Of a DNA stretch of 56,002 nucleotides, positions 3,075-42,508 are shown piece by piece (position 1 is the first letter of the stretch; each line of letters starts with the position of its first letter). Made by a program: the position numbers and the translations under genes. The stretch is from a virus (Duplodnaviria; Caudoviricetes), in IMG/VR virus record IMGVR_UViG_3300021197_000758, positions 1 through 56,002 of that record; one strand, 5' to 3'. The notes under the pieces were generated by a model, which had not been told where the DNA came from, ran no database searches, and saw only the letters and a program-made list of their open reading frames with translations.

Positions 3075-3767
3075 ATGGAAGCAATAAACAGACCTTTATC
3101 TGTCGAAGAGATAGACTTTAGGATTCAGAGTATTAACAATGGCAAGTACGCCACAATATTAGCCTACAAGGATGCGAGGGTAGATATGAATAGGTTGGAC
3201 GAAGCTTTTGGGGTATTCGGATGGAAACGAGAGCATACTAGAGACAACAAGAACTGTATAATCTCAATATGGGATGCCGAAAATAAGCATTGGGTATCTA
3301 AGGAAGACACTGGAACAGAGAGTAACACTGAGCAAGCTAAGGGATTAGCTAGTGACTCATTTAAGAGAGCAGGCTTTAACATTGGTATAGGTAGAGAGTT
3401 ATACGACTACCCAGTCATATCAATTAGATTGAATGACGATGAAGTTACTAAGGTTGGTGATAAGTACAGACAGTCGTACAATTTGAAGCTAAAGGATTGG
3501 ACTTGGGAAAGTAAGTTTGAAGATAGTAAGATTGTATTCTTAAAAGCTACTGACGACAAAGGCAAAGGTAGATACCTTTGGAGCATTGGCAATAAAGCAA
3601 AGCCAATTCAATCGAAAACAGAATCTCTGTTAGCAATGGATGCAGCTGCACTTGCAGGGGCTATTAAATTCGTAGCGGGCGGTGGAGACATTAGCAAGAT
3701 TAACACTAAATATAAAATGAGCAAAGCTCAGGAGTTACAAATAAAATCAGCAGTAAAAAATGGATAA
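3075..3767 (+). CDS. Sak/Rad52-like single-strand annealing protein
   Basis: LAYKDARVDMNRLD, KEDTGTES..EQAKGLASDSFKRA.FNIGIGRELY are Rad52/Rad22-family phage SSAP motifs; adjacent to an exonuclease. Confidence 0.85.
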   Translation: MEAINRPLSVEEIDFRIQSINNGKYATILAYKDARVDMNRLDEAFGVFGWKREHTRDNKNCIISIWDAENKHWVSKEDTGTESNTEQAKGLASDSFKRAGFNIGIGRELYDYPVISIRLNDDEVTKVGDKYRQSYNLKLKDWTWESKFEDSKIVFLKATDDKGKGRYLWSIGNKAKPIQSKTESLLAMDAAALAGAIKFVAGGGDISKINTKYKMSKAQELQIKSAVKNG

Positions 3768-4494
3768 GAAAGAAATAATCGAAAAGCTTAGAGACGATGA
3801 TCACTACTACGGTGAGTTTGGGCAGCAATACTTGTCTAATTCTAAGATAAAAACACTACTTGAGAACCCATTAGCATTTAATGAACCTCAAGAGCCTAAC
3901 TCTAACTTTATAATCGGTTCGTACTTCCATACGTCAATATTAGAGCCTGAGAAGAAAGAAAACTTTAAAATAATAGATTCATCCACAAGGACTACAAAAA
4001 TATATAAGGAGGAGTCTGGTGGCGAAATGTGCCTACTTTTAAAGGAGAAGGAAGCTGTGGATATTATGGTTGACAAAGTAATGAACATAAAGGCTCTCAG
4101 TCGTTTAATCAAGGGTGGCGATAGCATAGAGTACGAAGTTCCAAATATTGCAGACTTGTTTGGTAACAAGTGGAAAGGTAAGGCTGACATAGTTAATCAT
4201 GATGAAAAACTTATTGTAGACTTGAAGACTACTTCAAATATTAATAACTTTGAGTGGTCTGCTAGGGATTACAACTACGATTCTCAAGCTTGGTTGTATA
4301 AGCAGATGTTTGGCTACGACATGGTCTTTATTGTGATTGACAAGAACACCTTGCAGACTGGATACTTTGAATGCTCAGAAGAATTCTTAAGTAGAGGAAT
4401 GGAGAAGGCTAAGAAAGCAAGTGGGGTTTACGACCTTTTCTTTAAGAACGAAGACTTTAATTCAGAACAATTTTTTATTAATCGTACACTATAG
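3760..4494 (+). CDS. PD-(D/E)XK exonuclease (RecE/exonuclease VIII-like, DUF3799 type)
   Basis: LSNSKIK, GSYFHTSILEP, KGKADIV..IVDLKTT, YNYDSQAWLY. Confidence 0.85.
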   Translation: MDKKEIIEKLRDDDHYYGEFGQQYLSNSKIKTLLENPLAFNEPQEPNSNFIIGSYFHTSILEPEKKENFKIIDSSTRTTKIYKEESGGEMCLLLKEKEAVDIMVDKVMNIKALSRLIKGGDSIEYEVPNIADLFGNKWKGKADIVNHDEKLIVDLKTTSNINNFEWSARDYNYDSQAWLYKQMFGYDMVFIVIDKNTLQTGYFECSEEFLSRGMEKAKKASGVYDLFFKNEDFNSEQFFINRTL

Positions 4495-8798: not shown

Positions 8799-9248
8799 AT
8801 GAGAAGAAAAGTTTCAAAAAAAAGAGGTCCAGTAGTTTCTAAGAAGGTGACTTATGATGGTATTGACTTTAAGTCTGGGCTTGAAAAGTATATGTATATA
8901 GCCCTTAAGTCAGCAGGTATACACGCTGTTTATGAGGGCAAAACATTTGAGCTTGTGAGTTCATTTAAATTTTCTCCAGATAGCTACGAAAGACAAGCTA
9001 ACGGAAAAGGAGAGATGATAAATAGAGGAGGAAAGAAGCATCAAGGCATTAAGTACACTCCCGACTTTATTGGAGAGGGATTTATTATCGAATGCAAAGG
9101 GAGGGCAAATGAGTCCTTCCCAATTCGATGGAAGTTATTCAAAGACCACATGAAGCATAACAAAGACGTTACGCTGTATAAGCCTCAATCTCAAAAAGAG
9201 TGCGATGAGGTGGTTAAATTAATTTTAAAAAGTAGAGAAAATAGCTAG
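8799..9248 (+). CDS. T7 endonuclease I-like Holliday junction resolvase
   Basis: FKSGLE, YE, YTPDF..IIECKG PD-(D/E)XK motifs. Confidence 0.8.
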   Translation: MRRKVSKKRGPVVSKKVTYDGIDFKSGLEKYMYIALKSAGIHAVYEGKTFELVSSFKFSPDSYERQANGKGEMINRGGKKHQGIKYTPDFIGEGFIIECKGRANESFPIRWKLFKDHMKHNKDVTLYKPQSQKECDEVVKLILKSRENS

Positions 9249-9535: not shown

Positions 9536-10525
9536 ATGAATATAGAAGAACAATACCTAGACTTACTTGATGACGTTTTGTATAACGGAGTAGGCAAGAG
9601 CGATAGGACTGGTACTGGAACCATATCAGTATTTGGTAGGCAGATTAGGCACGATATGTCTTTAGGGTTTCCACTACTTACAACCAAGAAGATGCCAATA
9701 AAAACTATAGCTACCGAACTTCTTTGGTTTTTAAGAGGCGATAGTAATATCAAATACTTGATAGATAACGGATGCAATATTTGGAACGGTGATGCCCATA
9801 AGAATTACTTAAAGTATAATAATCCATGCTCGATGTCTGAGTTTATAGATAAGATAAACAATGATAGACTTTTTGAGTGCCAATGGGGCAACCTTGGTCC
9901 TATCTATGGAAGGCAGTGGAGAAATTTTTATGATGAAGGGATAGATCAGATAGCGAATTCGATAAGACTACTTAAAACAGACCCAGACTCAAGAAGAAAT
10001 AAAGTTTCTGCTTGGAGTGTAGGCGATTTAGAATTAATGGTTCTACCTCCATGCCACACAGGATTTCAACTTTGCACGAGAGAGTTGACTCAATCAGAGC
10101 GATTTAATTATTACGGAAAGCTAATAGGATCTGATATGTATCACGACCATATCGTTGAAGAGATGAACGAGAACAATGTTCCGACAAGAGCAATCTCTTT
10201 AATGTGGGAACAAAGGTCTGCTGATTTATTTTTAGGATTACCGTTTAACATAGCTTCATATGCAATGCTTTTGTGTATATTTGCTGAGGAGGCCAATATG
10301 ATTCCAGATGAATTGATTGGCAGTTTAGGAGATGTCCACTTGTACACAAACCACATAGAGCAAGCTAAATTACAGTTGTCAAGAGATCCATACGATCCAC
10401 CATTACTAAATATTAATAAAAAAGAAGGTTCAATTGTAGATAGAATAAATGAGTACGAACCAAAAGATTTTTCAGTACTTAAGTATAATTACTACAACAA
10501 CATTAAAGCACCTTTATCAAATTAG
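9536..10525 (+). CDS. thyA: thymidylate synthase
   Basis: DRTGTGT, FPLLTTKK, ELLWF, LGPIYGRQWR, catalytic LPPCH, QRSAD..LGLPFN, GDVHLY. Confidence 0.97.
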   Translation: MNIEEQYLDLLDDVLYNGVGKSDRTGTGTISVFGRQIRHDMSLGFPLLTTKKMPIKTIATELLWFLRGDSNIKYLIDNGCNIWNGDAHKNYLKYNNPCSMSEFIDKINNDRLFECQWGNLGPIYGRQWRNFYDEGIDQIANSIRLLKTDPDSRRNKVSAWSVGDLELMVLPPCHTGFQLCTRELTQSERFNYYGKLIGSDMYHDHIVEEMNENNVPTRAISLMWEQRSADLFLGLPFNIASYAMLLCIFAEEANMIPDELIGSLGDVHLYTNHIEQAKLQLSRDPYDPPLLNINKKEGSIVDRINEYEPKDFSVLKYNYYNNIKAPLSN

Positions 10526-11087: not shown

Positions 11088-12950
11088 ATGGAAACGTCTA
11101 ATAAAATATTGAGTGATATTACCGTGTACATGAAGTACGCTAAGTACCTACCAGAGGTAAATAGAAGAGAGACTTGGGAAGACCTTGTCACTAGAAATAA
11201 GTTAATGCACATAAAGAAATACCCACAACTTAAGGATGAAATTAACGAGGTTTATAAATTTGTTTACGACAAAAAGGTTTTACCGTCAATGCGGTCTTTA
11301 CAATTTGGTGGAAAGCCTATTGATATCTCACCGAATCGTGTTTATAACTGTGCTTACCTTCCTATTGATCACATTGATTCTTTTCACGAGACAATGTTCT
11401 TATTGCTAGGTGGAACAGGTGTAGGATACTCAGTTCAGAAGCATCACGTCGACAAACTTCCTCCGATAAACCACCCATACAGCAGAAGAACTAAGAGATA
11501 CCTTATTGGCGATAGCATCGAGGGATGGGCTGATGCAATAAAGGTTCTTGTTAAGTCTTACCTTGGGGATAAGAAAAGCTCTAAGGTTGAGTTCGATTAC
11601 TCTGACATTAGACCTAAAGGTGCGCAGCTTGTTACGTCTGGAGGTAAAGCCCCAGGACCTCAGCCACTAAAAGAATGTATGCTGAAGATTAAGGGATTAC
11701 TTGAGGCTAAAAAAGATGGAGACAAACTGTCTAGTCTTGAAGTTCACGACATTGTGTGTTACATTGCTGACGCTGTGCTTGCTGGAGGTATTAGAAGAGC
11801 TGCTCTAATTAGTTTGTTTTCTGCTGATGATGACGACATGATATCTTGTAAGTCAGGATCTTGGTGGGAAAGTAATCCTCAGAGAGGTAGAGCCAACAAT
11901 TCTGCAGTGCTTATGAGACACAAGATTAGTAAGGAGTTTTTTATGGGTCTTTGGAAGAGAGTTGAGCTTTCTGGAGCAGGTGAGCCTGGAATATACTTTA
12001 ACAACGATAAAGACTGGGGTACAAATCCTTGCTGCGAGATAGCTTTGAGACCTTTTCAGTTCTGCAACCTTTGCGAAGTAAACGCTAGTGACATATCGTC
12101 TCAAGAAGACTACAACGAAAGAGTTAAAGCAGCAGCTTTTATTGGAACGCTTCAAGCTGGCTACACAAACTTTCACTACCTTAGAGATGTGTGGAGAGAA
12201 ACTACCGAGAAGGATGCTCTTATTGGCGTATCTATGACTGGTATAGCTTCTAATGCTGTTCTTAGTTTAGATATGTCGGAGGCTGCTAACGTGGTTAAGG
12301 AGGAGAACGAAAGGATTGCATCTATAATTGGCATTAACACCGCTGCTAGATGCACCACCGTAAAGCCTGCTGGGACGACTTCTCTTACACTTGGAACGTC
12401 TTCTGGTATTCATGCATGGCATAACGACTACTACATCCGTAGAGTGCGTGTAGGTAAGTCTGAGTCTATGTACAAGTATTTATCGGAGAACCATCCTGAA
12501 TTGATCGAAGATGAGTACTTCAGACCTCACGACACTGCAGTTATTTCTATACCTCAAAAAGCACCTGATGGAGCTATACTTAGAACTGAGTCTCCATTCG
12601 ATTTACTTGAAAGAATTAAAGATGTAGCTACTAAGTGGGTTGCTCCTGGACACAGAAGGGGGTCTAATACACATAATGTATCGGCTACGGTTTCTTTAAA
12701 AGAAAACGAGTGGGATTCTGCAGGAGAGTGGATGTGGGATAATAGAGAGTTTTACAATGGACTATCTGTGCTTCCTTACAATGGAGGAACTTACACTCAG
12801 GCTCCGTTCGAAGATATAGACGAAGCTAAGTACAATGAAATGATGAAGACGCTTAAGGATGTAAATCTTTCTAACATCTTAGAGTCTGACGATAATACTG
12901 ATTTAACTGGTGAGCTTGCCTGTGCTGGTGGAGCTTGCGAAATAATTTAA
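11088..12950 (+). CDS. nrdJ: class II (B12-dependent) ribonucleotide reductase, monomeric RTPR-like
   Basis: RRETW, LPSMR, YNCA, GGIRRAALI, TNPCCEI..CNLCE, TTVKPAGT, C-terminal CAGGACE; no beta-subunit gene. Confidence 0.92.
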   Translation: METSNKILSDITVYMKYAKYLPEVNRRETWEDLVTRNKLMHIKKYPQLKDEINEVYKFVYDKKVLPSMRSLQFGGKPIDISPNRVYNCAYLPIDHIDSFHETMFLLLGGTGVGYSVQKHHVDKLPPINHPYSRRTKRYLIGDSIEGWADAIKVLVKSYLGDKKSSKVEFDYSDIRPKGAQLVTSGGKAPGPQPLKECMLKIKGLLEAKKDGDKLSSLEVHDIVCYIADAVLAGGIRRAALISLFSADDDDMISCKSGSWWESNPQRGRANNSAVLMRHKISKEFFMGLWKRVELSGAGEPGIYFNNDKDWGTNPCCEIALRPFQFCNLCEVNASDISSQEDYNERVKAAAFIGTLQAGYTNFHYLRDVWRETTEKDALIGVSMTGIASNAVLSLDMSEAANVVKEENERIASIIGINTAARCTTVKPAGTTSLTLGTSSGIHAWHNDYYIRRVRVGKSESMYKYLSENHPELIEDEYFRPHDTAVISIPQKAPDGAILRTESPFDLLERIKDVATKWVAPGHRRGSNTHNVSATVSLKENEWDSAGEWMWDNREFYNGLSVLPYNGGTYTQAPFEDIDEAKYNEMMKTLKDVNLSNILESDDNTDLTGELACAGGACEII

Positions 12951-13311: not shown

Positions 13312-16300
13312 CTACTTTCTAGCTTTTAAAGTTTTTAACCTAGCGTCCCTATCTCTGGAGCTTCTTGAAGATGACTTTGATTTCTCAACCCCTTGGAACA
13401 AATACTTTAGGTATATCTTTCTGATATCTTTATAAGCAGGTACTGCACCTAAGTTTCCAGCGATCTCAAAAGGTATTCTAGTTAATAACTCATTTTGATT
13501 CTTATCTATAGTTTCCTGAGTCTTAGCTGAAGACGCTCTAGATTGCAAGGTAACTCCCCTCTTTATTGTCTTAGCCATTGGAGTAAACGAACCTAGCGAA
13601 GATACTACCATATTGGTAAATACGTCATCTCTAGGTGATGGATCTAATGGTATCTTAGAAAACGCTAAGTTATTCTTATAAGCGTCGTACTCTCCAGTTC
13701 TTGTTATACCTTCTCCATACTCCTTATTTAACCATTCCGTACCGTAGTTTATTGGTATCTGAGATAAGTTACCGATATTTCTACCTAGCGCAAGAGTGGC
13801 AACTCCTGCTAATACATTTCTAGTTAAGTCAGTTCCTAATTCGAATTCGTCTTCGTCATCATCTATACCAAGTGCCATAAATATTAAGGCAAAGGTCATA
13901 TCCATAGCCATCTTGTACATAGACATACGAAATACCGTACCAGCTAAAAGCATAGCTCCCTTAGTTCTAGACATATCACCCTTTCCAACAAGAGACTGAA
14001 TCGCCTTTAATGCTGAGTAGTATTCAAAAACTCTAAACCTACTCATATACCTATCCATTATTATTGCAGCACTCTTTATTGCACTTGCGTCTTTTGGATT
14101 TATATTCTTAGGTATTCCATCAAATGGATTGTTAGACGCAGCGTTATCTATTACAGCTGAGTCAGCATCAAATGTAGCCTTTTCAATTGCGGATGCGTAC
14201 TTCTCTCTGTATTCTGTATCTGTAGCTACCTTATTCCAATCTACATCAACTCCAGTTTCTTTCTTAAACGAAGTATTAAATGCACCGACAAATAAAGGTC
14301 TAGCAACTAACGTATCTGGTTTTGTTATCAAGTTTTCATTGAACTTTATAAACCAATCTAACGGCTTCTTAGCTACATTTCTAACAATCTCGGCATCTTC
14401 GGCAATGTCTGAAGTCATATCTTCAGGCTCAAATAACTTAGATTTGGAAAACAATCTATCTTCTATATCCTTACTTGATAAGTCTTGTTGGTTCGTCAAT
14501 CTAGCTGTCTGAGTTGATCCAAGAACTTTTAATGCGGCATCTATTACTGCATTATTAGAACCAGACGCTGACAATGTTTTTATACCACTTATGAATTCTA
14601 TAGGATTTACGATCATTGCGTGTCCTGCATTCGTGGTAAGCTCTACTGCTGCTTTAACTGGTCCAGCAAGTTGAGCAAGGTATCCTGCTCTACCTAAAAA
14701 GCTTATAGCCTTCTCTGAAAACGCTCTATCTTTTGTTACGTTTTTAAATTCATAGCTAATTATTCCATCATAAACATCTTCTAATGCTTTAGCTAACTCC
14801 TTATCGTTCTTAGTTGTAGCCTCGCTTCTTAAGTTTGACAGCGCTATCTTAGCTCTCTTCACAATTGGATACATATAGTAACTAGTCTCTGTCTTTCTAG
14901 AAGCAGTGTAAGCGTTATGCACAGGATCTAGAGATATAGAGTGTACGTTTCCAGTCCTCTGTATTGCTGCTTTACTTTTTAGAGATGGATTAGTAAATGA
15001 ATTATGGAGATCGTCAAACTCTTTAGTCATTTGGGTCTCCTGATTAGTAACCTTAGGAAGGTGAACGTAATTCTCTCTAGGTATAAATGTCATACCTCTG
15101 TTGGCTGCATCTGCTGCAGCTTTTTCCTGTATTGATGCATATGTCTCGTCTACAATTGCCAAAAATCGCTTCTCTTTACTAGTCATTCCTTCTAGTATTT
15201 TAGAAGTGCTAACCTTCCCATCAACAGTAAACTCATTCATTAGATCCCTAATAGCAGCTTTCTCTCTTTCGTCATAAACACTATTTTCATCATCTAATGT
15301 AGCCTCTATCCACTTCTTAGCTGTATTGACCTCTTTATTTTTAGGATTACTTTCGTACTCCCTCTGTATCTGATACATCATCACCTTTACTTTCTGCAAG
15401 AATCTAGTATTCTTCCTAATAGATAGTAACGCTTCAGCCTTTTCTAGGTTAGTCTTAATGTCCTTTAAAGAAGCCTCTAGTCTTGAAAAAGCTTGAGATG
15501 ATGGATAGAGTATTGACTTGTATATATTTGTAGTCTTAAGCTTATCTGATGCTGACTTTATAACTTGGTCGATGTTTCTAAGTGGGGTAGACCTAATTCT
15601 ATTCGATATAGATGTCTCCTTTTTATTTTTACTTAAGAATAAGTTTTTTGTAAAAATCTTAGACTTTGATATCAACTTGTCTATTGCGCCACGTTCCTTT
15701 ATCTCTTTAGAAACAGATTGTGAGTCTCTATTTCCTTCGACTCTTATCTTACTCTGAAGTAGTTTTGTTGAAACAAATCCATCCTTTAACATCTCTAGAC
15801 CTCTAACAAGATCTCTAGCTTGTTGAGGAGTTAGCGAATCAAAATCTTTTTCAGTTAATGAGTTTGCGAATTTTACTGCACTCCTTTCGTCGCCAGTGAT
15901 ATTAAGTATACTTGGAGTCGGCTCATTCATAGCGTCAAGAAACTCCTCCTTTATTTCAGCTAAAACTTCTTCTTTTGACTTTCCGCCAGCATTAGACATC
16001 TCTTCGTCAGCATTTGTCTCATTAAATATATCTAAAAATCTCAACGCTAACTCATGATCATCCTTGCTTATAATCCCATCTTTAAGCATCTTGTCCAGAT
16101 TCTTTCTTATGGTTAAGTTCGGATCCATAGAATTAGAAATTCTATCTTTCAATTCATTGGCTCTTTGATTATCTGAAGAGTAGTCGGAAAGTATTGAGTC
16201 TATCATATCAGATAACTCTTCTCTAGACATCCTACTGTCGTACTTTTTATCTACATTAACTAGGTCTGATATAACTTTATCGTACTTAACTAAAGATCGC

Positions 16301-19300
16301 TTAGATAGGTATGCTGGGTCCACAGAGAATATAGACAATAGCTTAGGTTGAAGCTCTTTCAATACCCCAAGGTTCTTTATTCTTTTTATTGCTATGCCTC
16401 TATCTTTGTACCTCTGTCTCCTTAGGATTCTATCGATCTCCATATTCAAAGCATCGGCTACTTGGTCAACCATCTTTTGTATGTTGTTGGCGTTTGTTAG
16501 CTTTACTCTGGTGATTATCTTACCTATAGTACTCTTGGATAGCTTACTAAGCTTAGAGTCTTTTATCATAGACTTTATTTCCTTAACGATTGCAGCCCTA
16601 GCCTTGTCGTTATCTTTCATTTTGTCTATTCTAGCCTTAAATGAAGCTCTAAGTTTTTCGATTCTCTCCTTTGTCTTAGCAGCAGCTTTCTCTCTAGCCT
16701 CCTTCTTATCTCTCTTTACTGAGTCAAAAAACTCTGCAAACCCCTGCTCAAACATTTGCTTTTCTGTCAACCCTTTGGTTTCAGATGCTATCGTTACTGG
16801 CTTTTCTTTTTTGAAGAACTGCTTTATTCCGTTTCTTATCTCGTCTTTAGTAAACCCAACTTCCTGCAATACTTCTATAGTCTCCTTTCTTGTAAGGCCT
16901 TCTTTTTTAGATTCCTCTATTACATCTTGTATTGTGAAATCTTCTTGCGATTGCTGCTGACGAGTTTGTGGTTTTATGTCATAAACTACAGTTCCATAAG
17001 TAGAGTTGTCCAATTCGGTTCCTGTAGCATTAACACCTTCGAAGCCTAATGCTTTCATTATTAGCGTGGATGGTGTGTCGGTGTTACCACTTGATTTTAA
17101 TTTTTCGTTAATTTCATTAGCAACTATATCTCTTTTTTCGTCCTGACTTTGTTCAAAACTTATATAGTTACTAGAACCTTTATCAATTTCCTCTTCAGTA
17201 TATTTTTTTAATAATAATACATATTGATCATAGTTTCTATGAAAGAATTCTTTATAAGGGTTTTCTGTACTAATTTGATTAGGTGAATTAACCCCTAATA
17301 TTTTTGATACTGTCGATATGTCATAAGTTGTTATACTAGTTGGTTTATTTGACATAGCACTATCATTTATACTTTTTAGTGCATTATGTAACCTTAAACT
17401 GGCTGGTGCTAAATTATAATCATCTAAATCAACTACAGAAACAATTCGTGATGCCGTATCTGTGCCTGTTCTTTTAGCGTACTCTTGAGCATCTTCTTTT
17501 TTACCGAAAAAATAAAACCCTGTACCAAAATGACCTGTACTTCTTTGCGTAAACTCAAACTTATATATTGGTTCGGCTTTATTGACCAAATCTCCAGCTC
17601 TAAAAACTTTCTGCTGACGGGTCTGTGGAAAATCATCACCTATCTTTTCAATTATTACACCTCTTTGACCAAAAGTGTTATTTGGATATACATTTACTTT
17701 GTCTCCAAGTAAGTCTTGCACATACTCTACAAACTCATTGCCATCAAACCCTTTTTGATATACGTCAATTGTTTCTCCGCCCTTTTTCCTTTTAATAATA
17801 TAGCTCTTATCCTCAGCTCCTTTTTCAAAGTTTTTAGCGTTTGCTATGTCATTTTTAAAAGCTCTTGAACTAATTGCTGCAACACCACCTATCTTTAACT
17901 TATCATATATGTCTTCTAAAATAAAATCTCGAATATTTTTTGGTACAACATTAACTACGTTTAGTGATACGATAGCATCGTATTTTTTATTAATATCGCC
18001 AGATTTAGTGTAAGTTACAGGACTTTTACCCTTCCATCTTTCAGGATTTAATTCATAAGAATCAACCTTACTCCCTAATACCTCTGACATTGCATCAGTG
18101 CCAAGTCCAAGACCAGCCCCATAATCTAATACTTCGCCCTCTTTCTCTAAGCTATTCAGTATTTTAGCGGCTTTTACATAGCTACCTGTAGTGGTGGCTA
18201 CCTGTGTAGTGCCTGAAGCTTTAGATAATGCATTGTCTATTTTCTGCTGACGAATTTGTGGTATTTTTACTTCGGCCACCTTAACAATAGCTCCAGCGGC
18301 AGATGATACATTAACTGATTTAAAATCTATATCAGGATCTGTCTTTCTAGATACTACGGTTTCTTCAGAGTTATATTTAGTATACGACTCTGTTATATCA
18401 TATGACTTATAAAACTTTGTAGGTTGCATTATCCTTTCAATCTTAGCTTTAACAGTCCATCCAAACGAAGGATGGTGATCTACGTCACCAGGATTTGTTT
18501 TTACAATTTCAAACGTAGTAGGATCAAACTGAACAAACGTCATAATCTCTCCTCCTACTATGCCTTTATTGAGAGGATCCATTATCTTCTGGTGAAACTC
18601 CTGTAAGCTTTTAACTCCTATTGCTTTTTGAAATTTTTTATTGGCAGCTATCTTTTGGTTTAGGTTTTTTCTTAAATCAGGCGAAAAATTATTCTCAATA
18701 TTTAAAAGACGTACTAATTCTTTTGGGTTAGACTCAAAGGAATCTAGGTTCTTTATATCTAAACCAGAAGCTTTTATAAACTTTCTAAAAGCACTTAAAA
18801 GCTCAGATGGTTTAGCTGGTTTCTTTGTGACTTTAACTTCTTTGCCATCTACTTTTTTTATATAATATCCTTTTTCTTCTATACTTTTAATTCTTTTCGC
18901 ATAAGTTTTTTTAGCAGATTCATTCCTGAGATTAACATTAAACAATTTTATAATATCTTTATTACTTAATATATTATTATCAAGAACCAAGTCCACTAAC
19001 TGTTCAAATATGTGTTGTTGAAACTGCCAAGAACCATTTAAAGTTCCTGAATGGGGGGCAAATAAATTAGCTTTACCTTTCGTTGCGTTTCTTATAAATC
19101 CTTCAGCCTGAGACTTTGTGTTAAAAGCAGCAAGATTAGAAATATCTCCCAAAACCTTGCCCATTTTATGCATAATTAAAGGAACGTAGTTACGTCCGCC
19201 AAGTAGCTCTATGCTGTACCCATTACCTAAATCAGTTTTACCTGCATTAGTATAGTCATACATATTAGTTACAAACTTCTTAAGGTCAAATTCATTTATA

Positions 19301-22300
19301 TCTACATATTCTACAAATTTTCTTATCCAACTTCGTGGATCGTCTTTAACACTTGGCGAGTCAATTACTTTAATTTGCCGTCTAGGTATCTTTATTGTTC
19401 CAACTTCGCCTTCAGAGCCTTGTTCTTGATTCTGTAGTACGTCTATGTCAGCTTGATTAACAACTTCTCCCTTTGCAACTTTTGCAGACACAACATCTAA
19501 GAAATCTAACACTTTCTTGTCACTACTTAGAATCCCATCTTTGTCGCTGTCAAGTAAAGCTTCTACTGGCACATTAAGAACCTTAGCAAGCTTTCTCAAC
19601 CAATCGTTTATTAAGTCTTTCACAGACTGCGGAGACGACTCGTAGTTTTCTGCTAGTATGCCAAAAAGTTGAGCCATACTCTCCTCAGATTGAAGCTCAT
19701 TTTCATAATTACTAGCAAAGTCATCAAGCTCTTTAAGTAGCTTAGGAGACGCAACCTTACGAACAGAATCTATCATATTTGATGTAATCTGTTGTGCTTT
19801 AGCGTTTGTTATGCCATCCTTGAGTAATAGCGCATGAAAAACTTCGTGCGCAACTGTTGTCATGTTAGCCTTTTCAAGATTTATTCTAATTGTCTTTGTT
19901 CGTAATGCATACTCCCCTCTTGAAATAGGGTTCCCTCCAGCGGCTTCAAAATCTTCTTGAGTTTCGTATACCTCTATAGTAACACCAGGAGCAACTTTCG
20001 ATAAAGCCTTTTTAGCATTTTCAACTTGCTTTTTGACTCTACTCTGCATTCGAGACTTTCCAAATTTACTAGCAACCTTTTCTATTACAGTAGGCTTTCT
20101 TTCAGTTTTTGGAGCCGCATTTGTTGTTTCTGTTGGAGAGACCTTAGTCTTCGGTGTAGCCTTTGTGGTTTCTTTTGGTTTAGAATCACTCAATATATCA
20201 AGCACTAACTCCTTGAAGTAGAAATCGTTTGGGTAAAATCCTTGATCTTCTATAAATGATAACGCATCGTCTACAGCTTGAAGTATATTCCTTCCTGCCG
20301 CATATGAGTTTCTAATAACCTGCAGTGCTGCAACAACAACTGATTCAGGAGCATCTATTCTTTCATTGAATGCAGGTTTAGATCCTTCTGATTTTTGCTG
20401 TCTTGCAGAAAGCTTTTCATCAATAGCGTCGTCTATTTTTTGTAGTTCTTCTTTTTTAAATTCATCTATAAGTTTTTCTGCTTTAGCTAAAGCCCTTCTT
20501 TCTTGGTTTGACTTTTTAGACTTAAATACCCCTATGGCTTTACTTCTCTTCGCTTCCTCTCTAGTTCCAATTAGCTTACCGCTTTCGTTCATCTGAGATA
20601 CAGAAAAAGACCCATCAGCATTCTTTGTTACTTGGAATACGTTTTCTCCAACCTGGACTAAGTCCTTGTCTTTAGACTCATTAGCAGCTTCTTCAAGAGC
20701 AATTTCTTCAAACTCTTGAACGGCTCTCTGATGCTCTTCTTCAAGCTTAGAAAGATCCTCCAAAGCCTTGCTGTCGTACTCTTCTCTAGCCTTTATTTTT
20801 TCTGCAACCTTTTTGGCTCTCAATTCTTTTTTTGTTGGAGCAGCAGGAGTTTCCACTTCCTTTCCTTCAACTGTTAGAGGTAGCTTTTCGTCTACCTTCT
20901 TATCTCTTAAGGATACGTCTTTTAATATTCTTTCTGCTTTAGCTCCCTTAAATGCTCGAATAAGGCCTGTTGCCTTCTCTTTTACCTTTACTACAGCTTT
21001 GCCTTTCTTGTTTCTTCTTCTACCTATTACCTTGTACTCTTTGCCATCTATAGAAACAGCGTCTGAGTCCATGCCTTCAGTTTGTACGTCTACTCCTTCT
21101 GGAGGCATTTTAGTTAACCCGAATCCTGATATAGGCTCCGAACCTACTTCATCTTTGTTTCCAAGTTCAATTATCTCCTCCCCAGACTCAAATACAATAG
21201 TATTTTCGTTTTCTGGATCAATTTTTATGTTACCCTCTTTTCCGTCTAGATATACTTTTTCTTGCTTGTTCGCATTATCTAAAAGATTACCTTCTCTTTT
21301 CTTTGTCTCTACCTCTTTTTTTAGATCCTCCAGATATTCTTGAGGCATTGCTTCCTCTGCAGGAGCAGTCTCTACAGTCTCTTGCTCTTCTTGGGTTGGT
21401 GGGACACCAGTCTCCTTTTCTGTCTCTGTCGATGGCTTTTTATCTTTAGGGTTACTAATTTCCTCAAGTCTAGATTGAACTTCTTTAAGTCTTTCTGACT
21501 CGGTCTTAGTTAACGATGCATTGTCAACATCCTTTATCTTATCTTTTAACCTCTTCTCTTCTATTAATAGCTTTACAGCCTCTGGCTTATTCTCGTCAGT
21601 AAGCCTATCTATCTTATTAGCCGTATTTACAGCACCCTGAGTCTCTCTAAAGTTTGTTTTGATAGCTTCGGCTCGCTCTTCATCCATTCGTCCATTAGCG
21701 ACCTCTATTTCGACTTGCTCGTCAACTATATTAGAGGTATTTTTTTTGGCAGCCAAGTCCATAGTCGTCTTGTCTATATCCGTGTCTGGATTGAATACGG
21801 AAGAAACACTTTCGTACCCTCCAGCTTTAGCTTCATTTGTCGCTTTTACTCGTCCACTTACTACATTTATATTTTTTAACGTAGTTGGTAAAACTGTTAA
21901 TGGCGCAGTTCCTAAGCCAGCAAATCCCTCAAATCCTATCTCTTTAATGTCCATTTCTTGATCAGCAGCTAGTCTACCAGCTACCTCTCCAGCCATACCA
22001 CCCGCAACTTCAACGGCACCACCGGCTGCAGGAGCAGCTATTTTTCGTGCAGCCCTTTTACCAATAGTCTTTCCTCCTTTAACTATTCCAGCTCCGACTT
22101 TTGTGGCTTTACCGGCTAGTCCTCCAGTAAGTCCTTCTATAGCACCAATAGCAACACCTCTACCAATAGCTTTTGATCGTATATCCTTAAGCTGTTCTGG
22201 ATCGTTAAGTATTGCTCTAACTTTTTCAGGAGTAGCCTCTCCATCTATCTTTTCTTGTAGTAATTCAGATAAAGTAAGGCTCGCTTCCATGGCTGCCGCT

Positions 22301-23175
22301 CCAGCTCCTATGCCTCCAGATAAAGCACCTCCAGCAGCTCCCGCTGCTGATGTTATTGGAGCAAAAACACCTCCAGCTAATCCTAATGCAGCTCCAGTTC
22401 CAGCACCAGCACCAGCTCCTGCGACTGCTGCTCCTAGAACTTCTCCAGAAGCTAACGATCCAATTTGAGTGGCCATTGAACTTACAAATAGACTAGTTAA
22501 GACCGTAGGACTTTCTAGCGTACCCATCAAGAATCCAAAAGCACCTCCTCCATTTTCATCAAAAGCCTTATTGAAGTCCTTCATCTCATCAGACTCAACA
22601 GACTTCTTAGCTATCTTGTCGTTTACACGAATCCATTCGCTAATCTCTTTATCTGAAGCATCTGAACCAGACTTTAGTATGTCCATAGAAGGATCTACTG
22701 CTTCGGCCTGAAGAAATCCCTGAACTCCAGCTCTATATATGTCACCAAAGAAGTCGGTTATTGAGTTTTTGCCAAGCGTTCTCTCAAGAAGTGTGTCTTC
22801 CTCTTGTGATGCCAAAAAACCATTCTCCGATACAGAATCCGTACCTGTTGCTTGTTCGTCCATCGCTGTCTGAGTCGCAACATCTTCGACAGCTACTCCC
22901 TTTCCCAACCCTTCTTTCTTTATAAGCACTCCGTCAGCAACTAACTTGTCAAATTGGTCTGGGTACCCCTCCCTAAGTAGGGACTCGCTATAAAGCTCCC
23001 CATCGTACTCATACATAGACTCTTCTTGATTTACTACAGGCTCTTCTTCTTTTTTCTTCAGAACTCCGTCCGCAACTAGTCTATCAAAATCTTCTGGATA
23101 TCCTTCTCTAAGTAAAGATTCGCTATAGTATTGTCCATCGTACTCATACATATCATTTAATTGCTCTTTGCTCAT
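13312..23175 (-). CDS. giant polyvalent internal virion/ejection protein (3287 aa): N-terminal repeats, Gly/Ala hydrophobic segment, coiled coils, HEXXH metallopeptidase, unknown module, SAM methyltransferase, ART-like module, helical C-terminus
   Basis: Last gene of the structural arm; TVAHEVFHALL..EE; VLDYGAGLG; GHFGTGFYF..AQEYA..GFEGV. Confidence 0.8.
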   Translation of the reverse strand: MSKEQLNDMYEYDGQYYSESLLREGYPEDFDRLVADGVLKKKEEEPVVNQEESMYEYDGELYSESLLREGYPDQFDKLVADGVLIKKEGLGKGVAVEDVATQTAMDEQATGTDSVSENGFLASQEEDTLLERTLGKNSITDFFGDIYRAGVQGFLQAEAVDPSMDILKSGSDASDKEISEWIRVNDKIAKKSVESDEMKDFNKAFDENGGGAFGFLMGTLESPTVLTSLFVSSMATQIGSLASGEVLGAAVAGAGAGAGTGAALGLAGGVFAPITSAAGAAGGALSGGIGAGAAAMEASLTLSELLQEKIDGEATPEKVRAILNDPEQLKDIRSKAIGRGVAIGAIEGLTGGLAGKATKVGAGIVKGGKTIGKRAARKIAAPAAGGAVEVAGGMAGEVAGRLAADQEMDIKEIGFEGFAGLGTAPLTVLPTTLKNINVVSGRVKATNEAKAGGYESVSSVFNPDTDIDKTTMDLAAKKNTSNIVDEQVEIEVANGRMDEERAEAIKTNFRETQGAVNTANKIDRLTDENKPEAVKLLIEEKRLKDKIKDVDNASLTKTESERLKEVQSRLEEISNPKDKKPSTETEKETGVPPTQEEQETVETAPAEEAMPQEYLEDLKKEVETKKREGNLLDNANKQEKVYLDGKEGNIKIDPENENTIVFESGEEIIELGNKDEVGSEPISGFGLTKMPPEGVDVQTEGMDSDAVSIDGKEYKVIGRRRNKKGKAVVKVKEKATGLIRAFKGAKAERILKDVSLRDKKVDEKLPLTVEGKEVETPAAPTKKELRAKKVAEKIKAREEYDSKALEDLSKLEEEHQRAVQEFEEIALEEAANESKDKDLVQVGENVFQVTKNADGSFSVSQMNESGKLIGTREEAKRSKAIGVFKSKKSNQERRALAKAEKLIDEFKKEELQKIDDAIDEKLSARQQKSEGSKPAFNERIDAPESVVVAALQVIRNSYAAGRNILQAVDDALSFIEDQGFYPNDFYFKELVLDILSDSKPKETTKATPKTKVSPTETTNAAPKTERKPTVIEKVASKFGKSRMQSRVKKQVENAKKALSKVAPGVTIEVYETQEDFEAAGGNPISRGEYALRTKTIRINLEKANMTTVAHEVFHALLLKDGITNAKAQQITSNMIDSVRKVASPKLLKELDDFASNYENELQSEESMAQLFGILAENYESSPQSVKDLINDWLRKLAKVLNVPVEALLDSDKDGILSSDKKVLDFLDVVSAKVAKGEVVNQADIDVLQNQEQGSEGEVGTIKIPRRQIKVIDSPSVKDDPRSWIRKFVEYVDINEFDLKKFVTNMYDYTNAGKTDLGNGYSIELLGGRNYVPLIMHKMGKVLGDISNLAAFNTKSQAEGFIRNATKGKANLFAPHSGTLNGSWQFQQHIFEQLVDLVLDNNILSNKDIIKLFNVNLRNESAKKTYAKRIKSIEEKGYYIKKVDGKEVKVTKKPAKPSELLSAFRKFIKASGLDIKNLDSFESNPKELVRLLNIENNFSPDLRKNLNQKIAANKKFQKAIGVKSLQEFHQKIMDPLNKGIVGGEIMTFVQFDPTTFEIVKTNPGDVDHHPSFGWTVKAKIERIMQPTKFYKSYDITESYTKYNSEETVVSRKTDPDIDFKSVNVSSAAGAIVKVAEVKIPQIRQQKIDNALSKASGTTQVATTTGSYVKAAKILNSLEKEGEVLDYGAGLGLGTDAMSEVLGSKVDSYELNPERWKGKSPVTYTKSGDINKKYDAIVSLNVVNVVPKNIRDFILEDIYDKLKIGGVAAISSRAFKNDIANAKNFEKGAEDKSYIIKRKKGGETIDVYQKGFDGNEFVEYVQDLLGDKVNVYPNNTFGQRGVIIEKIGDDFPQTRQQKVFRAGDLVNKAEPIYKFEFTQRSTGHFGTGFYFFGKKEDAQEYAKRTGTDTASRIVSVVDLDDYNLAPASLRLHNALKSINDSAMSNKPTSITTYDISTVSKILGVNSPNQISTENPYKEFFHRNYDQYVLLLKKYTEEEIDKGSSNYISFEQSQDEKRDIVANEINEKLKSSGNTDTPSTLIMKALGFEGVNATGTELDNSTYGTVVYDIKPQTRQQQSQEDFTIQDVIEESKKEGLTRKETIEVLQEVGFTKDEIRNGIKQFFKKEKPVTIASETKGLTEKQMFEQGFAEFFDSVKRDKKEAREKAAAKTKERIEKLRASFKARIDKMKDNDKARAAIVKEIKSMIKDSKLSKLSKSTIGKIITRVKLTNANNIQKMVDQVADALNMEIDRILRRQRYKDRGIAIKRIKNLGVLKELQPKLLSIFSVDPAYLSKRSLVKYDKVISDLVNVDKKYDSRMSREELSDMIDSILSDYSSDNQRANELKDRISNSMDPNLTIRKNLDKMLKDGIISKDDHELALRFLDIFNETNADEEMSNAGGKSKEEVLAEIKEEFLDAMNEPTPSILNITGDERSAVKFANSLTEKDFDSLTPQQARDLVRGLEMLKDGFVSTKLLQSKIRVEGNRDSQSVSKEIKERGAIDKLISKSKIFTKNLFLSKNKKETSISNRIRSTPLRNIDQVIKSASDKLKTTNIYKSILYPSSQAFSRLEASLKDIKTNLEKAEALLSIRKNTRFLQKVKVMMYQIQREYESNPKNKEVNTAKKWIEATLDDENSVYDEREKAAIRDLMNEFTVDGKVSTSKILEGMTSKEKRFLAIVDETYASIQEKAAADAANRGMTFIPRENYVHLPKVTNQETQMTKEFDDLHNSFTNPSLKSKAAIQRTGNVHSISLDPVHNAYTASRKTETSYYMYPIVKRAKIALSNLRSEATTKNDKELAKALEDVYDGIISYEFKNVTKDRAFSEKAISFLGRAGYLAQLAGPVKAAVELTTNAGHAMIVNPIEFISGIKTLSASGSNNAVIDAALKVLGSTQTARLTNQQDLSSKDIEDRLFSKSKLFEPEDMTSDIAEDAEIVRNVAKKPLDWFIKFNENLITKPDTLVARPLFVGAFNTSFKKETGVDVDWNKVATDTEYREKYASAIEKATFDADSAVIDNAASNNPFDGIPKNINPKDASAIKSAAIIMDRYMSRFRVFEYYSALKAIQSLVGKGDMSRTKGAMLLAGTVFRMSMYKMAMDMTFALIFMALGIDDDEDEFELGTDLTRNVLAGVATLALGRNIGNLSQIPINYGTEWLNKEYGEGITRTGEYDAYKNNLAFSKIPLDPSPRDDVFTNMVVSSLGSFTPMAKTIKRGVTLQSRASSAKTQETIDKNQNELLTRIPFEIAGNLGAVPAYKDIRKIYLKYLFQGVEKSKSSSRSSRDRDARLKTLKARK
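16951..16971 (-). repeat. cassette-boundary repeat CCACAAACTCGTCAGCAGCAA (PQTRQQQ)
   Basis: Closes the ART-like module; matches copies at 17608 and 18241. Confidence 0.85.
17608..17628 (-). repeat. cassette-boundary repeat CCACAGACCCGTCAGCAGAAA (PQTRQQK)
   Basis: Between the methyltransferase and ART-like modules. Confidence 0.85.
18241..18261 (-). repeat. cassette-boundary repeat CCACAAATTCGTCAGCAGAAA (PQIRQQK)
   Basis: Between the unknown module and the methyltransferase. Confidence 0.85.
22912..23151 (-). repeat. 2 x 35-aa N-terminal repeat MYEYDG..YSESLLREGYP..FD.LVADGVL.KKE
   Basis: Copies at 23151-23047 and 23016-22912. Confidence 0.9.
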
Positions 23176-37603: not shown

Positions 37604-40009
37604 TTACTTAGGACCAAATTGGTCTAAGCTAAATCCACCAAGTACGTCATTCCCTGACGACTCAAAATTCTTTGGCAATAAGTTATTCTTTCTTTGATCA
37701 ATAAGCTCAGACTGTTGCGTTCCCTGCATCTTAAGTCTCTTATCTTTTCTATCCTCAACAGATTGCTCCTTGCCTGCTTCAGCACTAGCTCTTATTTGAG
37801 CCAACTGCATATTGAAGTTAAACTCCTCAGCCATAAGCTCTCTCTTTATTTGAGCCTCAGTTCTAAGTCTTTCTATCTCAAACTTAGACTTAGCCTGCTC
37901 TATACTTATCTTTTCAGCCGTAAGTGCTTGCTGCTTTTGAACATCTGTCATAGCTGTCTGCTCTGCTAACTGAGCGTTTGCCTGAGCTTGCGCTTGTATG
38001 TTTTGTTGTTGAGCTTGTTGTGCTGCAGCTACTTTTTTCTTTCTCCTATCCTTTAGCATCTCATTTGCCAACTGTAGGTTCTTAACTCTCCTTATGTCTA
38101 TAACATCTTCTAGGTCTATGCCTCCAGATTGAAGAGCTATTTGTATGTTTTGCTCTAGTTGAGCTTTCTCCTCGTCGTCTGGCTCCAATTCTAAGAATAT
38201 ACCAAAGTCGTGAAGATTTAAGTTAGATATCTCGTGTAGGGTAGCTGTATTAAACTTAGATATACTATTTACTAATGCGTTCTCTGTTAATGGAAACTCC
38301 AAAGAGTCAGCAACTCTCCTAGAGATGTTTTCGCACGCTCTAAGCGTCAAGTAGCAGCTTGCCTGAAGTATGTGCCTAGTTGCAACATTAGATTGATTAG
38401 CTGCCATCTTTTGAAGCCCTACTAGCGCATCTTTTGATGGTGCAGATCCGTCTCTAGCTTCATTCAATCCTGTTACGTCTCTAATCATTTGCAGGTAGTA
38501 CTGGTAAATACTAACCAAAGAGCTTATCTTGCCACCTCCATTTGATGAGTTTAACTCTTGAATTGGAATCTTACCTCTATTTAATTCCCCATCTTGAGTT
38601 AATGATCTACCAAGGACACTACCAGTTTGGAAGTACATATTTAATGCCTCTGCAGGATTGTAAGTAGTTCCATTTCCTAAGTCTACCTCAGCCAACCCAT
38701 CAACATCTAAGAATACTCCATCTGGAACCATTCTGGCAATAACTTGCTGAATTTTTATGTGAGTCAACTGAATCATATCAGCAAACCCAGTTATTCTACT
38801 AACTACAGAGTCTATCTTTCCGTTATACATCCTTGGCGCACATATAACGTAGTTCATCTCAACCTTAGATGTATCTCCATAGGGTCTAGTCATATTCTCA
38901 CTAAGTTCCCACTGTAGCATTATATTGCTTCCTAGTATCTTAGCCCCAGAATACAGAACCTCAATACTTCTTGATACCTTCTTGAATGTATCGCTCTCAG
39001 GTGGATTAAAATTGTCGTCTTTTTGTATGACCTTCTCTAATCCATTAGGACCTTGCTTTATTTTAAAAACCTGATTATTATAAGTCTTGTACTCAAAGTA
39101 AAGGACTTGAACTGTATTTTCATCATAACCTCTCCACCCAGAAATGTATTCCTTATTTCCAGGCATACTTTCTATCCTCTTAAGGTCTTCTTGGCTTATG
39201 TTTGGGAACTGCTTCTTAAGCTCTGGTATAGATACCGACTTAACTTCTCCAACATAATATATATCTTCAAAGTTCGGATCTTCACTGTAAGAGTAAACCA
39301 TGTTCGCTGGGTCGCAGTAATCAGCCTTAACTCCATTCGATTTATTCCAAGTTGTTTTAACTGCACCTATTCCAAGAACTGTTAAGTCGTAGTTAAACCT
39401 TTTTCTTACCTCATCAAACTTGTTCTTATCTAAAACGTAGTTTATAACTTCTTCTTCAGCTATTTCTACAGACTGCTTGTAGTCAAGTTGCATATGAAGA
39501 GACAGTTCCTCTTTTGTTTCTGGTAAAGACGCTGGATCGCTAGTGCTAAAACCATTAACTCCAAGATTTTCTTGAAGCATCATCATCTCTTCCTTAGCTG
39601 CCATATCTTCCATTATAGAAGTGGCGTACTTAGTTCTCTTTTGTATTGATTCTGGATCTTGAGCATAAGCACTTATCTCGTACTTCTTTTCAGTTATTCC
39701 ATTAGCAACAATATCCACGAACTTTGATATCACAGGCACTGGTTTCCAATCTAAGTTCAAGTAAGATAAGTCTCCATTTATAGCCAACTCGTCCTTGTAC
39801 TTCTGAACAGGCTGCTCACCTCTAGCGTAAAGTCTAAGAGTATGAAACCTGTTATAGTTTGTAGAGAATCTACTTCCAGTACCTCCCTGATTAAACCACT
39901 CAGATTCAATAGCTCTACCTACCTGCGAACCATACTCAGGAGTATTCTTCTCTATGTCACTAACTACTTGGCTAGGAAATGCACTATTTGGGTTTGCGCC
40001 TACATTCAT
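37604..40009 (-). CDS. portal protein (801 aa)
   Basis: Directly after the terminase; GLNEARDG motif and long Q/A-rich C-terminal coiled coil typical of podovirus portals. Confidence 0.8.
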   Translation of the reverse strand: MNVGANPNSAFPSQVVSDIEKNTPEYGSQVGRAIESEWFNQGGTGSRFSTNYNRFHTLRLYARGEQPVQKYKDELAINGDLSYLNLDWKPVPVISKFVDIVANGITEKKYEISAYAQDPESIQKRTKYATSIMEDMAAKEEMMMLQENLGVNGFSTSDPASLPETKEELSLHMQLDYKQSVEIAEEEVINYVLDKNKFDEVRKRFNYDLTVLGIGAVKTTWNKSNGVKADYCDPANMVYSYSEDPNFEDIYYVGEVKSVSIPELKKQFPNISQEDLKRIESMPGNKEYISGWRGYDENTVQVLYFEYKTYNNQVFKIKQGPNGLEKVIQKDDNFNPPESDTFKKVSRSIEVLYSGAKILGSNIMLQWELSENMTRPYGDTSKVEMNYVICAPRMYNGKIDSVVSRITGFADMIQLTHIKIQQVIARMVPDGVFLDVDGLAEVDLGNGTTYNPAEALNMYFQTGSVLGRSLTQDGELNRGKIPIQELNSSNGGGKISSLVSIYQYYLQMIRDVTGLNEARDGSAPSKDALVGLQKMAANQSNVATRHILQASCYLTLRACENISRRVADSLEFPLTENALVNSISKFNTATLHEISNLNLHDFGIFLELEPDDEEKAQLEQNIQIALQSGGIDLEDVIDIRRVKNLQLANEMLKDRRKKKVAAAQQAQQQNIQAQAQANAQLAEQTAMTDVQKQQALTAEKISIEQAKSKFEIERLRTEAQIKRELMAEEFNFNMQLAQIRASAEAGKEQSVEDRKDKRLKMQGTQQSELIDQRKNNLLPKNFESSGNDVLGGFSLDQFGPK

Positions 40010-42222: not shown

Positions 42223-42223
42223 A

Positions 42224-42508
42224 CTATGGAGTTTTTGCTCTACCTTCAGCGAATCCTTTGAAATTGTTCTTTGCTTTAGGCTCCTCTTTTGGTCTGTCAT
42301 TAAGCATATCGTCTTCGTCTTGTATCCTCTTTAGTATCTCAAAAGCATCAAATATTGCTAACTTCTTTGTAGCAGCAGCATTCTTAAGCTTGTCTGCCGT
42401 TAAATCGTCATCCTCATCTATAATTGGCTCTTGAGCTACTTTTATCAATTCTTCAACTGCTCTTTGCCCAGCTAGGATTATACTCTTTTTCGTCTCCTTT
42501 ACGTCCAT
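42224..42508 (-). CDS. putative terminase small subunit (94 aa)
   Basis: Small helical protein directly upstream of terL; positional inference only. Confidence 0.45.
   Translation of the reverse strand: MDVKETKKSIILAGQRAVEELIKVAQEPIIDEDDDLTADKLKNAAATKKLAIFDAFEILKRIQDEDDMLNDRPKEEPKAKNNFKGFAEGRAKTP

Follow-up and report, generated by a model that had tools for sequence, protein, structure and literature searches.

How can a gene be assembled from unrelated modules, and be reassembled in other lineages, while a single reading frame runs through all of them? This question is raised by the IMG/VR virus record IMGVR_UViG_3300021197_000758 (Caudoviricetes), which was analysed over its complete length of 56,002 bases (estimated completeness 87%) and is referred to here as the window. 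Its giant open reading frame (ORF; protein P0001, 3287 amino acids, positions 13312–23175 of the minus strand) holds three unrelated modules between constant ends, and each module terminates in a copy of a 21-bp repeat. An initial annotation of this DNA had read the repeat as a site for swapping cassettes between phages, as a site of proteolytic cleavage, or as both. Based on a comparison with related genes, we conclude that the repeat, termed the seam in the following, is very probably the place at which in-frame cassettes are exchanged.

The features of the giant gene are as follows (aa, amino acids):

13312–23175, minus strand: giant ORF, with a constant N part, an HExxH domain, three cassettes and a constant C part of ~1210 aa
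20392–23175, minus strand: constant N-terminal region (aa 1–928), with Gly/Ala-rich hydrophobic stretches and a terminal SARQQK
20392–20409, minus strand: seam-like SARQQK where the N region meets the HExxH region, in ordinary codons (AGA CAG CAA)
19369–20391, minus strand: HExxH region, 'Pep' (aa 929–1269), a putative zincin-type metallopeptidase
19834–19848, minus strand: HEVFH motif (aa 1110–1114)
19369–19386, minus strand: degenerate seam PRRQIK at the end of the HExxH region, in ordinary codons (AGA CGG CAA)
18238–19368, minus strand: cassette B (aa 1270–1646, 377 aa), without known family
18241–18261, minus strand: seam 1, PQIRQQK (aa 1640–1646), CCACAAATTCGTCAGCAGAAA
17605–18237, minus strand: cassette E (aa 1647–1857, 211 aa), S-adenosylmethionine (SAM)-methyltransferase-like
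17608–17628, minus strand: seam 2, PQTRQQK (aa 1851–1857), CCACAGACCCGTCAGCAGAAA
16948–17604, minus strand: cassette D (aa 1858–2076, 219 aa), ART-like
16951–16971, minus strand: seam 3, PQTRQQQ (aa 2070–2076), CCACAAACTCGTCAGCAGCAA
13315–16947, minus strand: constant C-terminal region (aa 2077–3287), with the phrog_32588 domain behind a coiled-coil-rich part

The 21-bp pattern described in the initial annotation was recovered at exactly three places, all of them on the minus strand (16951–16971, 17608–17628 and 18241–18261). Dinucleotide shuffles (n=100) yielded a mean of 0.01 matches, and none of the 100 reached three, by which a chance origin of the repeat is ruled out. As had been stated, the copies are 633 and 657 bp apart, all of them lie in-frame in one ORF (both distances being multiples of three), and they terminate three modules, measured here as 377 aa (unknown), 211 aa (methyltransferase-like) and 219 aa (ART-like). 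The degenerate copies PRRQIK (19369–19386) and SARQQK (20392–20409) were likewise found at their claimed places, and the remark on arginine usage is borne out by the 143 Arg codons of the gene (95 AGA, 25 AGG, 13 CGA, 1 CGG and 9 CGT), with three of the nine CGT codons located inside the repeats. The modules had also been described as more AT-rich than the flanks; this is correct in direction but modest in extent, with a GC content of 0.32–0.36 and a GC content at third codon positions of 0.19–0.24 in the modules, compared to 0.36–0.41 and 0.28–0.35 in the flanks. The core of the repeat, CGYMAGCAG, occurs in the 56-kb record at the three seam sites only, and no spare or silent cassettes were found elsewhere in the record. 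The extended 21-mer is confined to 5 IMG/VR contigs, all apparently with the giant gene; four of these are from known giant-gene loci, and the fifth (L053) was checked separately.

With the conserved 767 aa of the C terminus as the query, 86 giant homologues of 1898–4558 aa were retrieved. DNA was obtained for 38 related loci (12 viral and 26 metagenomic), which were found by alignment-based scans; a single-protein scan of viral contigs gave none. No close DNA relatives in cultured phages were detected by megablast, and the sole cultured relatives by protein are Elemovirus phages of Flavobacterium (about 23–37% identity), whose distant homologue is annotated as 'structural protein'. When the seven parts of the window's protein were mapped on the homologues, both ends proved constant and the middle variable. 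For a catalogue of cassettes, 20 non-redundant proteins were cut at the motif and the pieces were clustered. This resulted in eight cassette families (A with 11 copies, B with 7, C with 7, D with 4, and E, F, G and H with 1 each), the seams of which share [T/I]-R-[Q/K]-Q across families. Cassette E is unique to the window among the 20 catalogued relatives, and cassette D is also found in P0011, P0014 and L004. The following architectures illustrate the arrangements:

Pep-B-E-D: window
Pep-D: P0011 and P0014, without the unknown and the methyltransferase modules
Pep-A-D: L004
Pep-B-A: L005
A-C: L009, as compared with the reversed C-A in L027
B-C-A: L029
F-C-H: L040
A-A, a duplication: P0018
B directly into the C part: L053 (IMG/VR contig), with the junction ...KTPQTRQQ/LQEDFT

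Hence modules are gained, lost, replaced and reordered among the homologues, with the R(Q/K)Q seam at the borders, as the initial annotation had anticipated; the opposite outcome that it had named, i.e. a fixed module order without breakpoints at the motif, is clearly not what the homologues display. P0011 carries the junction 'IKIPQTRQQK/VFRAGD', and the window has Pep, B and E ahead of the same VFRAGD module. Behind the ART-like module, P0011 and P0014 continue into the C part at exactly the position where the window does ('DIKPQTRQQQ/AQDDFT'), and in P0004, P0011, P0013 and P0014 the alignment of the C region begins at its first residue, directly past the last seam.

Chimeric assembly was considered as a source of these arrangements and was ruled out, the cores being shorter than the usual assembly words. 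For two of the architectures, contigs of different datasets contain the identical ORF (L004 = L008, L005 = L010), so that these do not represent assembly artefacts. Four marine or seawater metagenome runs contain parts of the gene as short contigs; none of their contigs joined across a cassette, and the uneven cover of the cassette region proves nothing in this respect. The four metagenome joints listed skip 88–97 nt and resemble diverged stretches. One contig of run X1 matches the window on one side of ~19445 and continues into unlike sequence with the reverse complement of the core, which suggests, as a lead only, a relative with a seam ~25 codons upstream of PRRQIK.

Exchange between lineages becomes apparent when the identity of a cassette is compared with that of the last 760 aa of the same proteins. 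Cassette A is 98.0% identical between L004 and L005, the C parts of which share 64.0%, and 52.7% identical between L005 and L017, where the C part is 99.5% and the B cassettes are 100% identical. Cassette C displays 88.3% identity between L009 and L040 (C part 57.2%), and cassette B 87.8–88.6% between the window and P0015/P0016 (C parts 53.5–54.0%). The tract of 894 nt that L004 and L005 share at 99.2% identity spans from one core to the next. Among ordered pairs of 11 genes (blastn matches of at least 85% identity and at least 150 nt), 44 of the 110 internal match ends lie no more than 20 nt from a core, compared to 1.5 expected by chance. At the level of sequence, these comparisons establish both the cassette structure and its exchange between lineages. 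The independent evidence for the role of the seam is the sameness of the seam and of its codons.

Conservation of the seam as DNA was assessed in 24 distinct seam contexts from 14 gene copies for which DNA is available. The Arg codon is CGT in 21 and CGC in 3 of these 24, with CGT and CGC together making up 5.6% of 1750 Arg codons in the background. The middle codon is CAG in 20 cases and AAG in 4, and the last Gln is coded by CAG in 23 cases and by CAA in one (background CAG: 30% of 1351 Gln codons). Two codons upstream, Gln is CAA in 11 of 12 contexts. The codons beside the core vary, with CCA, CCC or CCT for Pro, ACC, ACT, ATT, ATC or ATA for Thr or Ile, and 8 forms of the following codon. 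At R[QK]Q sites that are not mobile, namely SARQQK, the site that follows the HExxH region ahead of B or the fixed inserts, and one within the C part, AGA is used in all 11 distinct cases. SARQQK, for example, is kept in L003, L004, L013 and L040, coded as AGA CAA CAA, and at the place of PRRQIK the relatives carry IPRQQI, LTRQQI, LTRRQV or EKRKQI, always with AGA. The proposed synonymous conservation of the repeat is thus supported, as the seam codons are kept against the codon usage of the genes themselves, and conservation at the codon level can be regarded as established from these alignments. Such a complete split between CGY and AGA is hard to explain without a constraint at the DNA level or continual homogenisation. 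For the 81 nt surrounding each of the three cores, folding of the DNA was not better than that of shuffled sequences (z 0.89, 0.07 and 0.75).

The content of the cassettes is diverse. Cassette E matches Methyltransf_23 (E 9.3e-6, 25.9 bits, below the cut-off of 27), its translation displays a DYGAGLG stretch, and it is 40% identical (E 1e-19) to a part of gp40 of Roseobacter phage CRP-738; since this counterpart is located in an alphaproteobacterial phage, the methyltransferase-like module crosses host phyla. The gp40 gene (L002:7449-9956) encodes 835 aa and is located close downstream of the portal gene, with one short ORF in between. Cassette D matches ART-PolyVal below the cut-off (E 0.0023); in its nearest Atlas cluster ART-PolyVal is assigned to 22% of the members (score 0.93), and the AlphaFold model, built on 13 sequences, is of poor quality (pLDDT 55.8). 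Module D and its homologues share conserved R-[ST]-TGHFGTGFYFFG and S-T motifs. In the relatives, cassette C corresponds to ART-PolyVal (7.3e-24, above the cut-off), and cassette A carries LPD23 at its start (2.5e-14, above the cut-off) together with a second HExxH. In the A cassettes (e.g. L004:13724-14605, L017:3405-4409) the first 150–170 nt (LPD23) and the last ~160 nt are conserved, the middle with the second HExxH diverges to ~50% identity, and many exchange borders are located at the inner edges. No known family could be assigned to cassettes B, F, G and H or to two inserts behind the peptidase region; for cassette B, no family was matched by Pfam, and the Atlas search gave no usable match. 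From the family names ART-PolyVal, LPD23 and methyltransferase we infer an anti-defence role.

Module D also exists as a free-standing protein, either closely related (P0090, 86% identical) or as a group of 205 aa with ~40% identity. These homologues (P0090, P0094–P0100) stop at ...YDIK, the residue that precedes PQTRQQ, from which it follows that the seam is a linker, a property of the fused state located outside the folded domain. P0090, P0091 and P0093–P0100 carry a conserved N-terminal leader of ~15–27 aa (MKKITLNEE...SSE or MKGYIKKLLREN), which could be a capsid-targeting sequence or a pro-peptide.

The initial annotation had also considered the seam as a site for cleavage, with the HExxH domain as the candidate protease. 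Across the 8 relatives that were aligned, HEVFH and a SEES further downstream never vary. In 8 of 8 relatives, Pfam returned no significant peptidase match. No match to MPTase-PolyVal (PF18818) was found in the 56-kb record. A search of PDB profiles placed IrrE at a non-significant E of 0.44, and a Foldseek search with the model of the domain gave 0 of 66 matches at E≤0.001, with collagenases, lethal factor and IrrE at non-significant top ranks. This data may suggest a zincin-like domain other than MPTase-PolyVal. The seam-bearing tails have low confidence in the models of both the HExxH region and D, which we do not count as evidence for disorder.

At the amino-acid level, the motif flanks the HExxH region on either side, where it is written in ordinary codons. 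In the Elemovirus protein, the HExxH is followed by RFQ, TRQQK and VRMQK at spacings of 396 and 223 aa, all coded with AGA. Other clades display repeated motifs of their own between modules: ESIKKSK[RKT]Q in P0023–P0037, [TP]RKQV and [IV]RxQ[LK] in P0079, P0084 and P0086–P0088, and [IG]KSKQSR, in up to 5 copies, in L054–L059. In these other clades the first copy of the motif always lies 139–160 aa after the HExxH. Such clade-specific motifs are compatible with a recognition site that changes together with its neighbouring domain, as would be predicted for a self-processing peptidase and in line with a general proposal by Iyer et al. (2017; PMC5512222). Codon use in the SKQSR clade is fairly uniform (TCT AAG CAR TCA AGA), which is weak evidence because the loci are 90–93% alike; for the KKSKRQ clade, a scan with P0029 returned only loci without that motif. 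Proteins that carry the HExxH domain could not be told apart from those without it by counting repeated 4-mers. [TI]R[QK]Q is present in 13 of 31 proteins with the domain compared to 5 of 56 without it, a difference that is confounded by phylogeny. The additional role of the seam as a proteolytic site is proposed tentatively, at not quite even chances.

We consider the following account, which combines recombination at the seam with processing of an effector array, to be probable. A giant polyvalent protein is built of self-contained modules in one frame, placed between a constant N/HExxH part and a C part of ~1200 aa. Each module ends in the linker P-x-[T/I]-R-[Q/K]-Q outside the folded domain. 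The DNA of this linker carries the nearly invariant core A(C/T)(C/T) CG(T/C) (C/A)AG CAG, and this core is the only sequence common to otherwise unrelated neighbouring modules. By recombination in or beside the core, modules would be exchanged, deleted, duplicated and reordered, and every such event would preserve the frame and the domain borders. The Erf-like annealing protein and the exonuclease of the phage are plausible catalysts. The HExxH domain or another protease may then cut the linker and thereby free the effectors, either in the capsid or after ejection.

A number of findings speak against this account or parts of it. With regard to exchange, 66 of the 110 match ends lie away from the cores, many of them 150–167 nt inside A cassettes, where ordinary homologous exchange within cassette families hence occurs as well; breakpoints at the seam are in part built in, because alignments stop where non-homologous neighbours begin. 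The invariant core of only ~9–13 nt is short for homologous recombination, and no site-specific recombinase was found in the search of the 56-kb record for tyrosine integrases. With regard to the codons, the 24 seam contexts are related by descent, and nominal p-values overstate the significance because the contexts are not phylogenetically independent; codon conservation could furthermore be a by-product of repeated exchange that is not itself selected. The close relatives are all metagenomic contigs. With regard to processing, the HExxH domain reaches significance for no peptidase family by Pfam, PDB profiles, Foldseek or MPTase-PolyVal, the AlphaFold model of the region is poor (pLDDT 52.2), and the clade-specific motifs were derived from patterns that were chosen after looking. 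A location in the virion is based on the position of the gene and on the 'structural protein' annotation of an Elemovirus homologue that is 23% identical.

In a bolder form of the combined account, which we regard as possible, if unlikely, the seam would be dual-coded. Its nucleotides would constitute a dedicated recombination signal for a phage function, and its amino acids would constitute the recognition site of the HExxH protease, which would co-evolve with it. This would explain the clade-specific motifs TRQQ, KKSKRQ and SKQSR. If true, the locus would represent an 'in-frame integron', in which new polyproteins are assembled from effector cassettes of a common pool, and the same 9–13 bases would specify both the assembly and the release of the payload.

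A reading of the seam as purely a protein feature, i.e. a flexible linker or a protease site with inherited or homogenised codons and a DNA core without a role in recombination, we consider improbable. The protein level alone can maintain the motif, because it exists with ordinary codons, both at the constant sites and in Elemovirus, and the exchange borders inside cassettes as well as the descent of the seam contexts mentioned above also fit this reading. However, across genes whose constant parts are 54–64% identical the neighbouring codons vary while the core stays, the upstream Gln keeps its CAA (11 of 12), and the split between seams (24 of 24 CGY) and other sites (11 of 11 AGA) is complete.

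Alternatively, a dedicated nuclease or recombinase might recognise CGYMAGCAG and drive the capture of cassettes in the way an integron integrase acts on attC. Indeed, ordinary homology would hardly account for a core of such brevity and conservation; all 3 of its occurrences in the 56-kb record are at seams, and its orientation and frame are always the same. Yet the record, at 87% estimated completeness, holds no tyrosine integrase and no spare cassettes, the core DNA folds no better than shuffles (z 0.07–0.89), none of the 30 ORFs scanned against PHROGs is a candidate for such an enzyme, and the Erf/exonuclease pair offers a generic route; we therefore hold a dedicated enzyme to be distinctly improbable. 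That ACC-CGT-CAG-CAG is kept for translation, as a pause or for accuracy at domain borders that aids folding, with shuffling independent of it, is hardly credible: minority codons do cluster at the domain linkers (CGT 4.9%, ACC 12.4%, CCC 3.8%), but the same amino acids are encoded by common codons where the border is fixed (SARQQK, IPRRQIK), a pause would not require the identical three codons each time, and CGA and CGG, although rare as well, are absent from the Arg position in all 24 seams.

To which known systems does a locus with exchangeable in-frame cassettes compare? Polyvalent proteins of phages and conjugative elements have been described in detail (Iyer, Burroughs, Anand, de Souza and Aravind, 2017; PMC5512222). 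In its passages on these proteins, this study predicts that domains are set free by autoproteolysis, describes architectures as mosaic, considers a recombinational variability of the cassette type for one group with a kinase, draws a comparison of cassettes with polymorphic toxins, and cites the processing of P1 DdrB. The same passages contain no cleavage or junction motif ('linker' and 'shuffl' each occur 0 times); the supplement may list related architectures. The protein of the window resembles polyvalent proteins in that several effector-type domains (HExxH, methyltransferase-like, ART-like) are combined in one polypeptide, and the hallmark domains ART-PolyVal and LPD23 are found in the cassettes of the relatives, with the window's D being only a weak match to ART-PolyVal. 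As cassettes C and A carry these two domains, the giant gene belongs among the polyvalent proteins. It differs from those described in the passages in question by a seam that is conserved at the codon level at every mobile border, and by an HExxH domain without a match to the MPTase-PolyVal model of PMC5512222. In the literature searched, the coverage of which is limited, we found no description of the seam or of the processing of the giant protein.

The MARTX toxins of Vibrio and relatives possess constant ends and central in-frame effector domains that vary between strains through recombination. They are secreted toxins with RTX-type repeats, in which an internal cysteine protease domain cuts the inter-domain linkers after delivery. 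The architecture of the window, with its constant ends and its central in-frame array, is MARTX-like by analogy, not by membership: its domain is of the HExxH type, its carrier is presumably a virion protein of a phage, and its linker is conserved at the nucleotide level. Neither the complete protein nor any of its seven parts gave a Pfam match at E≤5 to the MARTX families (cysteine protease, RTX repeats). In Rhs/CdiA polymorphic toxins, a short conserved motif at the border of the constant and the variable part is the recombination border for swaps of the toxin tip, and in Rhs it is a self-cleavage site as well. These toxins have one variable C-terminal tip, along with orphan cassettes that are accompanied by immunity genes. 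In contrast, the window has several internal cassettes in series, with no spare cassettes in the record and no immunity genes.

With integrons, the locus shares arrays of exchangeable cassettes that are bounded by a recurring short site and can change in order. Integrons, however, depend on the tyrosine recombinase IntI, on attC sites that fold, and on one promoter that serves separate genes. Integrase PF00589 gave 0 matches in the 56-kb record, with the control positive in 14 of 14 genomes, and an attC-like folded site is ruled out by the folds that were no better than those of shuffles. Unlike the separate promoterless genes of integrons, the cassettes are protein modules continuous in one frame without stops. 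Since neither an integrase nor a folded site was found, the locus is not an integron, and the term 'integron-like' of the initial annotation can be retained as an analogy only. The Dar proteins of P1, as well as Alt and the internal proteins of T4, are packed into the capsid, injected with the DNA and proteolytically processed, with ART and methyltransferase activities among them. These are separate genes or fixed fusions, and we know of no seam-bounded interchangeable array described for proteins of this type. By analogy, the locus appears to work more like MARTX or Rhs/CdiA toxins, located inside a phage polyvalent protein.

Polyvalent proteins are known as variable multidomain weapons, the processing of which has only been predicted. 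The locus and its relatives provide a concrete rule for the assembly and reassembly of such proteins: self-contained modules, which also occur as free-standing genes, are joined by a short codon-conserved seam that marks the points of exchange. It can now be tested whether the 9–13-nt core is sufficient for the in-frame shuffling of domains, and whether the same sequence is the site at which effectors are cut. A search for the seam in metagenomes delimits unknown effector modules precisely, and a catalogue based on it would list candidate domains for host takeover or counter-defence from phages of marine Flavobacteriia type. The parallel with MARTX and Rhs suggests, as an analogy, a convergent design of modular delivered proteins.

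The source of the window is an uncultured marine podovirus-like phage. According to PHROGs scans, the giant ORF closes a minus-strand block of portal, terminase and structural-protein genes that includes several 'virion structural protein' families as well as the following genes:

40006–42300, minus strand: terminase large subunit
37604–40009, minus strand: portal

The C part of the giant protein matches phrog_32588 (E 9.5e-108). Its N region (aa 1–928), for which no Pfam family was matched, is 67–70% identical to that of P0004, P0011, P0013 and P0014. Judging from this setting, the giant protein is presumably virion-associated or packaged.

The recombination genes of the phage are located on the plus strand at 3075–3767, 3760–4494 and 8799–9248, and the set comprises an Erf-like single-strand annealing protein (4.9e-23), an exonuclease (2e-30) and a Holliday-junction resolvase (1.6e-13). 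On the minus strand, the window encodes a GroEL-like chaperonin (48434–49972; phrog_5725, 3.7e-131) and a GroES-like co-chaperonin (42453–43049; phrog_13932, 6.8e-20), a pair that could aid the folding of a multidomain protein of 3287 aa. Further plus-strand genes at 1825–2610, 9536–10525 and 11088–12950 encode a sigma-factor-like protein (8.6e-20), a thymidylate synthase (2.4e-98) and a ribonucleotide reductase (8.4e-133).

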